31,164 nt of DNA, taken from a virus (lineage: Duplodnaviria; Heunggongvirae; Uroviricota; Caudoviricetes). The translations under genes and the position numbers were made by a program. This document shows positions 28,708-29,232 of the stretch, piece after piece. How positions within the stretch are numbered: position 1 is the stretch's first letter; each line of letters starts with the position of its first letter. The stretch lies in the IMG/VR virus record IMGVR_UViG_2713896902_000001. One strand, written 5' to 3'. The notes beneath the pieces are model-generated. The model did no database searches. It was not told where the DNA came from and saw nothing but the letters and a program-made list of their open reading frames with translations.

Positions 28708-28828
28708 ATTCATGCCCCTATTATTCATGAATCGCTTTTTCTGGAAGGTATGCGACAAACGTTAAGTGACATTGCCTACACATTCGGGGCGGGATTTCAA
28801 ATCCACTCCCAGTTGATGGGGCCGTTAC

Positions 28829-29204
28829 AGTACGCGCATATCCGCTTTATGTGAAACAGGAAGATTTTTCTGATATCACTGCACAGCAAAACACCAATTT
28901 CGGGACAAGTACGCGCGCGAGGGGTATCAGTTGCAAAAAATTTTGCAACTACGTCCGACCAGTACGCGCACGATGGAGGGGAGTACCATAAAACTGTTCT
29001 CTACATAAGTCAGAGTGGTGGTGATGTGTTGATTATCGGCGTATATGCGCACAGGACGCGCTATGACGATGTTTGATGCGGGTACACCATCACATGTATC
29101 TGGTGTGATAAATCGCGTTACATGACATCTCATGTTGTGCTGGTGGTTATCACGACGTTCTGAATCTGGCCTTTGCCTGATATTTTGCGACAAGTACGCG
29201 CGCG
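28829..29204. repeat. intergenic repeat set: AGTACGCGC x4, including a 16-bp exact direct repeat GACAAGTACGCGCGCG x2, and a perfect 22-bp palindrome
   Basis: AGTACGCGC copies near 28829, 28908, 28961, 29193; palindrome AGTTGCAAAAAATTTTGCAACT near 28929-28950. Confidence 0.5.
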
Positions 29205-29232
29205 TAGCATCGACAGCATACACATTGGATAT

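Follow-up and report, generated by a model that had tools for sequence, protein, structure and literature searches.

Genomic context of the intergenic region

The window analysed here (31,164 nucleotides; IMG/VR record IMGVR_UViG_2713896902_000001) holds a satellite of 19.3 kb delimited by the att core TCCTATTATC, which occurs exactly twice in the window (Table 1). Over positions 14197-21811 and 22240-29213 this element shows 97-98.6% identity with EcCIMP1, which is a phage-inducible chromosomal island (PICI) of E. coli MP1 described, together with its att core, by Pick, Stadel and Raivio (PMC11773190). The integrase, the alpA region, the primase-helicase and PerC were found in the published order along with that att core, and the element was assigned to the EcCIMP1 family. 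EcCIMP1 is excised and specifically transduced, with very low reported efficiency, by Kapi1, a P22-like phage that performs no generalized transduction; terminase genes, capsid genes and a packaging module were not found in it, and the mechanism of its packaging is called unknown by its authors (PMC11773190). Based on its identity to EcCIMP1, the copy in the window would probably also be excised and transferred upon induction by a helper.

From position 11752 rightwards the satellite carries a tyrosine integrase, the int-alpA RNA, an AntA antirepressor, an Ash-family ORF with the isrK and C4 RNAs, a Toprim/DUF927 primase-helicase, a DUF2824 protein, homologs of the P22 ejection proteins gp7, gp20 and gp16, and a lipoprotein. 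These are followed by the non-coding stretch which is the subject of this work, two small leftward genes and PerC. No terminase was identified by Pfam scans of the larger ORFs. The DUF2824 protein and the gp7, gp20 and gp16 homologs (22667-27835) are the satellite's own and distinct from the Kapi1 versions: the gp7 homolog is approximately 58% identical to that of Kapi1, while the gp16 homolog (908 aa) has an SLT lytic transglycosylase domain fused at its N-terminus. RNAs scoring above the Rfam gathering score were the int-alpA RNA (13027-13094), the Hfq-binding RNA isrK (16212-16289) and the C4 antisense RNA of the P1/P7-type immunity module (16352-16439); they adjoin the Ash- and AntA-family ORFs. 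To the left, the att site of the satellite is abutted by a second mobile element (1-11481), possibly a capsid-forming satellite, or else a remnant prophage lying in tandem.

As the first-pass annotation had it, the stretch is intergenic and lies between convergent ORFs, namely the lipoprotein-like gene (27986-28684, plus strand) and a 73-aa ORF (29233-29454, minus strand). Directly after the lipoprotein gene there are two overlapping G+C-rich hairpins, one per strand (28692-28717), which look like a bidirectional terminator between convergent transcription units. Beside the conserved part of the region lies a 151-aa ORF (29534-29989, minus strand), the N-terminus of which, NLIAFRIPSELQDEFNRSV, reads ribbon-helix-helix-like; its single database match was a weak one to a PHROG of unknown function.

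Table 1. Features of the window discussed in the text
Feature	Position	Strand	Remarks
Left element, serine resolvase	609-1148	-
Left element, HTH protein
Left element, major capsid protein E homolog	6155-7183
Left element, Dit-like tail protein	9353-10066
Left element, tyrosine integrase	10147-11481	-
Whole satellite, EcCIMP1-like PICI	11570-30888	+	att core TCCTATTATC at 11570-11579 and 30879-30888
Probable origin of replication	21643-21755		GTTGGTTCA three times in tandem, A+T-rich spacer, TGAACCAAC three times inverted
Conserved 428-bp non-coding module of EcCIMP1-family satellites	28786-29213	+	candidate packaging-signal region
Short repeat copy 0, CAGTACGCGCA	28828-28838	+	retained by 29 of the 32 distinct module sequences
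Long repeat copy 1, ATTTCGGGACAAGTACGCGCGCG (terS-like motif)	28897-28919	+	17/18 versus Kapi1 terS 18875-18892
Inverted repeat AGTTGCAAAA-AA-TTTTGCAACT	28929-28950		between copies 1 and 3
Short repeat copy 3, GACCAGTACGCGCACG	28957-28972	+	degenerate in most relatives (GACCAGTACGCACACG or GACCAGTATGCACACG)
Recurrent breakpoint	29096-29098	+	two unrelated prophages joined here to the right part of the satellite
Long repeat copy 2, ATTTTGCGACAAGTACGCGCGCG	29182-29204	+	exact 14-mer GCGACAAGTACGCG in common with Kapi1 terS

Repeats in the intergenic region

Four AGTACGCGC motifs and two exact copies of GACAAGTACGCGCGCG about 285 bp apart had been reported from this stretch, and both observations proved real. 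The motif AGTACGCGC is present at 28829, 28908, 28961 and 29193, always on the plus strand, versus 0.14 occurrences expected, and a count of four was reached in none of 100 shuffles. A search of the whole 31-kb window revealed no further copies outside 28829-29201. The longer repeat GACAAGTACGCGCGCG is exact at 28904-28919 and 29189-29204 (spacing 285 bp), and a third copy, with two mismatches, begins at 28957. Successive copies are irregularly spaced (79, 53 and 232 bp) and have the same orientation throughout.

Copies 1 and 2 are the long ones and stretch to 23 nt. The 22-mer of the long repeat is TTTYGNGACAAGTACGCGCGCG; GACAAGTACGCG is the segment of the motif found in the long copies and in the small-terminase gene (terS) discussed below. 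Copy 2 includes in addition a 12-bp palindrome, TACGCGCGCGTA, at 29195-29206. It was invariant in 32 of 32 distinct module sequences, among the sources of which were 40 metagenome contigs that had been chosen by copy 2 itself. Degenerate versions of the short copies 0 and 3 are seen in many relatives.

A 22-bp perfect palindrome had also been claimed for the region. An inverted repeat does exist, but the sequence in question, AGTTGCAAAAAATTTTGCAACT, consists of 10-bp arms around a 2-nt AA centre. The arms are conserved among relatives, in which the centre is AA, TT, AG or CT; neither Kapi1 nor the remainder of the window contains the inverted repeat.

Spread and conservation of the module

The 551-bp spacer between the two flanking ORFs was matched in 546 records representing 545 of 5426 complete E. 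coli genomes, in all cases in the chromosome. Based on the spacer positions covered, the matches fell into four classes (1-551, 1-529, 102-551 and 102-529). The left and right flanks therefore occur in all four combinations, from which it follows that a 428-bp core has been kept while its flanks were exchanged. This unit, the boundaries of which were set by the relatives, is nearly the same as the 28780-29210 first proposed for the repeat region, and its right boundary lies 9 nt past copy 2. At least 80% of the module was present in 523 of those genomes with an identity of 94-98%, and it is found in EcCIMP1 itself. The elements which carry it sit at thrW/pao or yicC/dinD and have varying primases and neighbouring genes; the 151-aa ORF is present in some of these contexts, and in others a small HTH gene (alpA_1-type) stands in its place. 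A metagenome scan gave 40 more copies of the module, with no new breakpoint variants among them, while the phage database contained no match to it in near or distant mode.

At the same loci the flanking coding genes are 98.5-99.6% identical, as against 94-98% for the module, which evolves faster than its neighbours and is conserved no better than neutral sites. Indels of 1-2 nt break any reading frame and substitutions are scattered throughout. An sRNA locus had been suggested earlier; no Rfam family matched the module, no promoter or terminator was found inside its 428 bp, and its folding energy did not differ from that of shuffled sequences on either strand (z-scores -0.95 and -1.35). Its relatives diverge by just 2-6%. 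Because of the indels, the low conservation and the lack of a fold or Rfam signal, the module behaves like non-coding DNA in which short functional sites are embedded.

A protein-coding ORF running through copy 1, annotated as hypothetical (WP_052601878.1) in one RefSeq genome, was considered and rejected: it has three different C-termini, is frameshifted in the window, and the differences in it are mostly amino-acid-changing. The window is alone among the 32 distinct module sequences in being without one C at 28882 (CACTG-CACAG), which breaks the WP_052601878.1 ORF.

The repeats were likewise considered as an origin of replication. They resemble the iteron origins (ori/crr) of PICIs and P4 in being short, intergenic direct repeats in a primase-encoding satellite, but they differ from these in their irregular spacing and in having no A+T-rich core; their G+C content is 0.44-0.48 and they are 7 kb away from the primase gene. 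A canonical iteron array of another sequence begins 26 nt past the stop codon of the primase-helicase gene, and because of this array the repeats of the module were not taken to be the origin.

Occurrence of the 22-mer in other contexts

The 22-mer TTTYGNGACAAGTACGCGCGCG recurs in the non-coding DNA of other integrated elements, where its flanks are unrelated. In EcCIMP1 and its relatives it is found 42 nt downstream of perC, a copy which in the relatives lies 1.7 kb away from the others, and in a different type of satellite it is found approximately 150 nt upstream of isrK. Two Serratia elements have the 22-mer directly beside iterons of the TGAACCAAC type, the same sequence as in the probable origin of the window. 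In species-representative genomes there were only three exact matches to the 22-mer. To judge from these contexts, the motif behaves as a portable 22-bp site of the kind that a protein would recognize.

Deletions, joints and recombinants

The presence/absence comparison proposed in the first-pass annotation gave a positive result for the segment between the 16-bp repeats, but the polymorphism is rare. In E. coli TUM10008 (one of the 546 matching records) one copy is left and exactly the 285 bp between the 16-mers are missing, while approximately nine genomes have lost some 51 bp from copy 1 to copy 3, and with them the inverted repeat. Both losses look like deletions between direct repeats and not like empty insertion sites.

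A recurrent joint was located at 29097 +/- 2, between copies 3 and 2, where it coincides with the midpoint of a short inverted repeat (ATCACA-N9-TGTGAT). The partners are a CPS-53-like prophage (yfd genes) and a lambdoid prophage with a truncated rusA, and in both the right-hand side of the satellite is kept. The use of a common joint suggests a discrete DNA end, and one may speculate that it is a terminase cut captured by illegitimate joining.

The metagenome contig IMGVR_UViG_3300045988_004969 combines Kapi1-like head genes (terS to the gp26 region, 90% identity) with the satellite gp16 homolog and the module, the latter being 99% identical to that of one satellite type. It is either a real phage-satellite recombinant formed via the common ejection genes or an assembly chimera.

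Similarity to the small-terminase gene of the helper

The sequence GTACGCG occurs once in the 39.4-kb genome of Kapi1 (both strands), and this single occurrence is in terS (18704-19132). The site, ATTTTCGCGACAAGTACGCG at 18875-18892 on the coding strand, encodes E-D-F-R-D-K-Y-A. Copy 1 agrees with it at 17 of 18 positions, whereas copy 2 has its exact 14-mer in common with Kapi1 18879-18892. The probability that any 14-mer of the spacer matches Kapi1 by chance is about 0.11; the coding strand of terS makes up 0.5% of the target and the repeated motif approximately 8% of the spacer, and these chance figures are post hoc, yet jointly small. A second 14-mer in common with Kapi1, CAGCAAAACACCAA, belongs to the capsid gene; the match goes no further than these 14 nt and was taken as chance.

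The TerS protein of Kapi1 is identical to Sf6 gp1 (PDB 3HEF, 4DYQ). For purified Sf6 TerS, low sequence specificity of DNA binding has been reported. The pac site of P22, which comprises 22 bp, is within gene 3, the terS of that phage. For Sf6, Leavitt et al. are said to have placed the pac site, in 2013, in gene 1, in the part which encodes the DNA-binding domain.

Three Sf6-type terS alleles of E. coli differ within the motif (TTTCGCGACAAG, TTTAGAGACAAG and TTTCGTGACCAG), with the codons CGC GAC AAG, AGA GAC AAG and CGT GAC CAG. The copy-1 variants of the satellites mirror these alleles: the commonest variant, TTTCGTGACCAGTACGCG, is identical to the third allele (allele C) at 18 of 18 positions, and other variants, including TTTCGAGACAAGTACGCG among the relatives, match the first two at 17 of 18. 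The satellite copies have a CGCG extension, in the place of which the E. coli terS alleles have AAGG.

The motif corresponds to terS codons 56-63 and lies at the end of, or just past, the allele-variable 5' part of the gene, which encodes the DNA-binding domain; the 3' part is conserved. Conservation of synonymous sites within the motif was found uninformative as evidence, since conservation extends over the whole 3' part and the motif directly adjoins the allele boundary. If specificity goes with the DNA-binding domain, the true pac site may be further upstream.

The peptide encoded by the motif, [FI]RDKYARA, is conserved in TerS proteins, and the same 16-mer was found in many unrelated environmental terS genes. 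From these comparisons the descent of the motif from some terS gene is clear; because the 16-mer is so widespread among terS genes, however, such a descent need not imply function. The similarity to terS is limited to approximately 20-35 nt. A decayed terS pseudogene was rejected as an explanation, given that the 194 nt upstream of copy 1, compared with the 5' part of terS, scored below the shuffle mean (p = 0.96) and that the breaks in the reading frame vary from one relative to another.

Satellite and Sf6-type terS prophage were found together in 1 of approximately 10 IMG/VR isolate genomes and, for complete E. coli genomes, as 2 overlaps among about 35 matches listed versus some 0.6 expected; their co-residence is not clearly enriched. 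The terS-positive complete genomes numbered 229 + 111, as against 545 with the satellite. In the co-residence genomes compared, there was no agreement between the resident terS allele and the copy-1 variant. One of these genomes has a C-like copy-1 variant along with an A/B-type terS, the first 214 nt of which agree with allele C at only about 78%.

A candidate packaging signal

We consider it about an even bet (probability roughly 0.5) that the repeats are a multi-copy mimic of the pac site of the helper, the module then being the candidate cis packaging region of the satellite. On this reading, which was arrived at by sequence comparison, a satellite without terminase genes of its own would carry two to four co-oriented copies of about 22 bp (TTTYGNGACAAGTACGCGCGCG and the shorter AGTACGCGC versions) which imitate a stretch within the terS of a P22/Sf6-like helper. 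The ring-shaped TerS of the helper would bind these copies on replicated satellite concatemers, TerL would then cut close by, and a headful would be packaged rightwards, so that about two copies of the satellite, of 19.3 kb each, would fill one 39.4-kb head. Binding by TerS, cleavage near the copies and a requirement for the copies in transduction are what this mechanism predicts. At 19.3 kb in the window and 19,963 bp in EcCIMP1, the satellite is about half as long as its helper Kapi1 (39,436 bp), and the packaging of dimers by a headful mechanism without any change in capsid size would fit these lengths. In favour of a pac mimic are the lack of terminase genes, the unique match within the helper terS, the mirroring of terS alleles, the recurrence of the 22-mer in unrelated flanks and the common orientation of the copies; other roles fit poorly because the origin appears to be elsewhere and there is neither an RNA signal nor a conserved ORF. 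Against it stand the place of the motif at the edge of the variable part of terS, the low specificity reported for Sf6 TerS, the CGCG extension missing from the E. coli terS alleles, the frequency of the 16-mer in unrelated terS genes, the co-residence data with their one discordant allele pairing, the faster evolution of the module and the very low reported efficiency of EcCIMP1 transduction.

It is rather improbable that the copies go further than this and form a "super-pac", imitating several terS alleles (K-type GACAAG and Q-type GACCAG) so that several Sf6-type terminases could be used. On that view the joint at 29097 would be the relic of a precise terminase cut, DNA packaged in situ from the integrated satellite (lateral transduction into the thrW/pao region) having become linked to resident prophages in the recipients. 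Were this so, the motif would place the pac site of the Sf6 family at the conserved FRD(K/Q)YA codons of terS.

Alternative explanations

Recombinase or regulator sites had been named among the possible functions of the repeats, and of this suggestion the portable 22-bp recognition site stands, while the best candidate for a binder is the small terminase of the helper and not a recombinase. Sites for another protein, such as a regulator of the satellite or the host or a recombination or partition factor, would make the likeness to terS irrelevant to function, and we regard them as unlikely, at odds of about one to four. Such sites would agree with an intergenic motif that is portable and keeps its sequence in unrelated flanks, with the 12-bp palindrome in copy 2, with the separate conserved inverted repeat between the copies, and with the neighbouring 151-aa ORF and its ribbon-helix-helix-like N-terminus. 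The module, however, is found with and without the 151-aa gene and beside differing regulators, there is no copy at the alpA or primase promoters or anywhere else in the window, and the unique match in the helper terS and the mirroring of its alleles would be left unexplained.

The copies could also be functionless scraps of terS, left behind by recombination between satellites and prophages or serving as homology patches for it, and marking mosaic joints. That only some 20-35 nt resemble terS, with no likeness upstream (p = 0.96), speaks against such scraps, as do the intact state of the module through flank exchanges in more than 500 genomes and the common orientation of all copies; independent retention in at least five unrelated contexts would be hard to attribute to chance debris. 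The position of the right module boundary, 9 nt after copy 2, is what a mosaic joint would look like, deletions between copies and prophage-satellite hybrids do exist, conservation of the module does not exceed that of neutral sites, and the 16-mer is a common encoding of a conserved TerS peptide. Weighing these points, we assign to this explanation, too, a minor share of the probability.

A small RNA, or an extended and functional 3' UTR belonging to the leftward genes, is very unlikely. The stretch downstream of the minus-strand 73-aa gene is long and non-coding, and the next terminator-like hairpin on that strand is only at 28707-28692, as a 3' UTR would have it, but the module has no Rfam family, no promoter-like site and no more stable fold than its shuffles, and indels of 1-2 nt and substitutions are spread through the whole of it.

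Finally, target-site duplications flanking an inserted element of about 270 bp, which had been proposed for the 16-bp repeats and for which the precise loss in TUM10008 might be cited, are hardly credible, given that this loss is a single case (523 of the 545 genomes hold at least 80% of the module), that a different deletion joins copies 1 and 3, that there are more than two copies, one of them 1.7 kb away in relatives, that no terminal inverted repeats at the ends of the 285-bp segment came up when the region was scanned for repeats in general, and that no independent copies of the segment were found elsewhere, the sole match outside satellite-derived DNA being the right-hand 117 bp attached to the right arm of the satellite in prophage hybrids.

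Comparison with known packaging signals

The closest parallel to the proposed mimic is the pac site of P22-like phages. Both are short, asymmetric sequences of about 22 bp, and the closest relative of the satellite motif is within the terS of the helper, whose TerS is identical to Sf6 gp1. In contrast to the pac sites of P22 and Sf6, the satellite copies are outside any terS, are non-coding, number two to four, and have a CGCG tail which is absent from the phage alleles. The pac region of SPP1 (pacL, pacC and pacR) is similar in having direct repeats distributed over a few hundred bp, where contact with a TerS ring is possible, and possibly in a discrete cut between repeats (compare the breakpoint at 29097). 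It has no sequence relation to the satellite repeats, however, and extends over both the promoter and the beginning of terS; what its pac boxes do is disputed.

Satellites which carry the packaging site of their helper are known. P4 carries the cos site of P2, and SaPIbov5 carries a phage cos site. For E. coli PICIs such as EcCICFT073, a published account (PMC6739421) describes the use of a cos site together with Rpp. The satellite of the window would resemble P4, SaPIbov5 and EcCICFT073 in being a terminase-less satellite with a cis signal for the terminase of its helper. It would differ in that cos satellites have precise cohesive ends, whereas headful (pac) packaging is proposed here, with a signal copied from the coding sequence of the helper terS. 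No Rpp-like specificity switch was identified in the satellite of the window. Mimicry of a pac site would be a variation on the known strategy of satellites carrying a helper packaging site.

Should the motif turn out to be irrelevant to packaging, the region would be no more than a common intergenic spacer with repeats, located in a mobile element that is already known. EcCIMP1-like satellites are present in approximately 10% of complete E. coli genomes and carry virulence regulators of the PerC type. With the 22-bp candidate signal and the 428-bp module, the packaging route of EcCIMP1 becomes experimentally approachable. If the proposed mimicry is true, a Gram-negative satellite hijacks a headful phage purely by copying pac from the terS of its helper, and the motif would be an independent pointer to the pac site of the Sf6 family.
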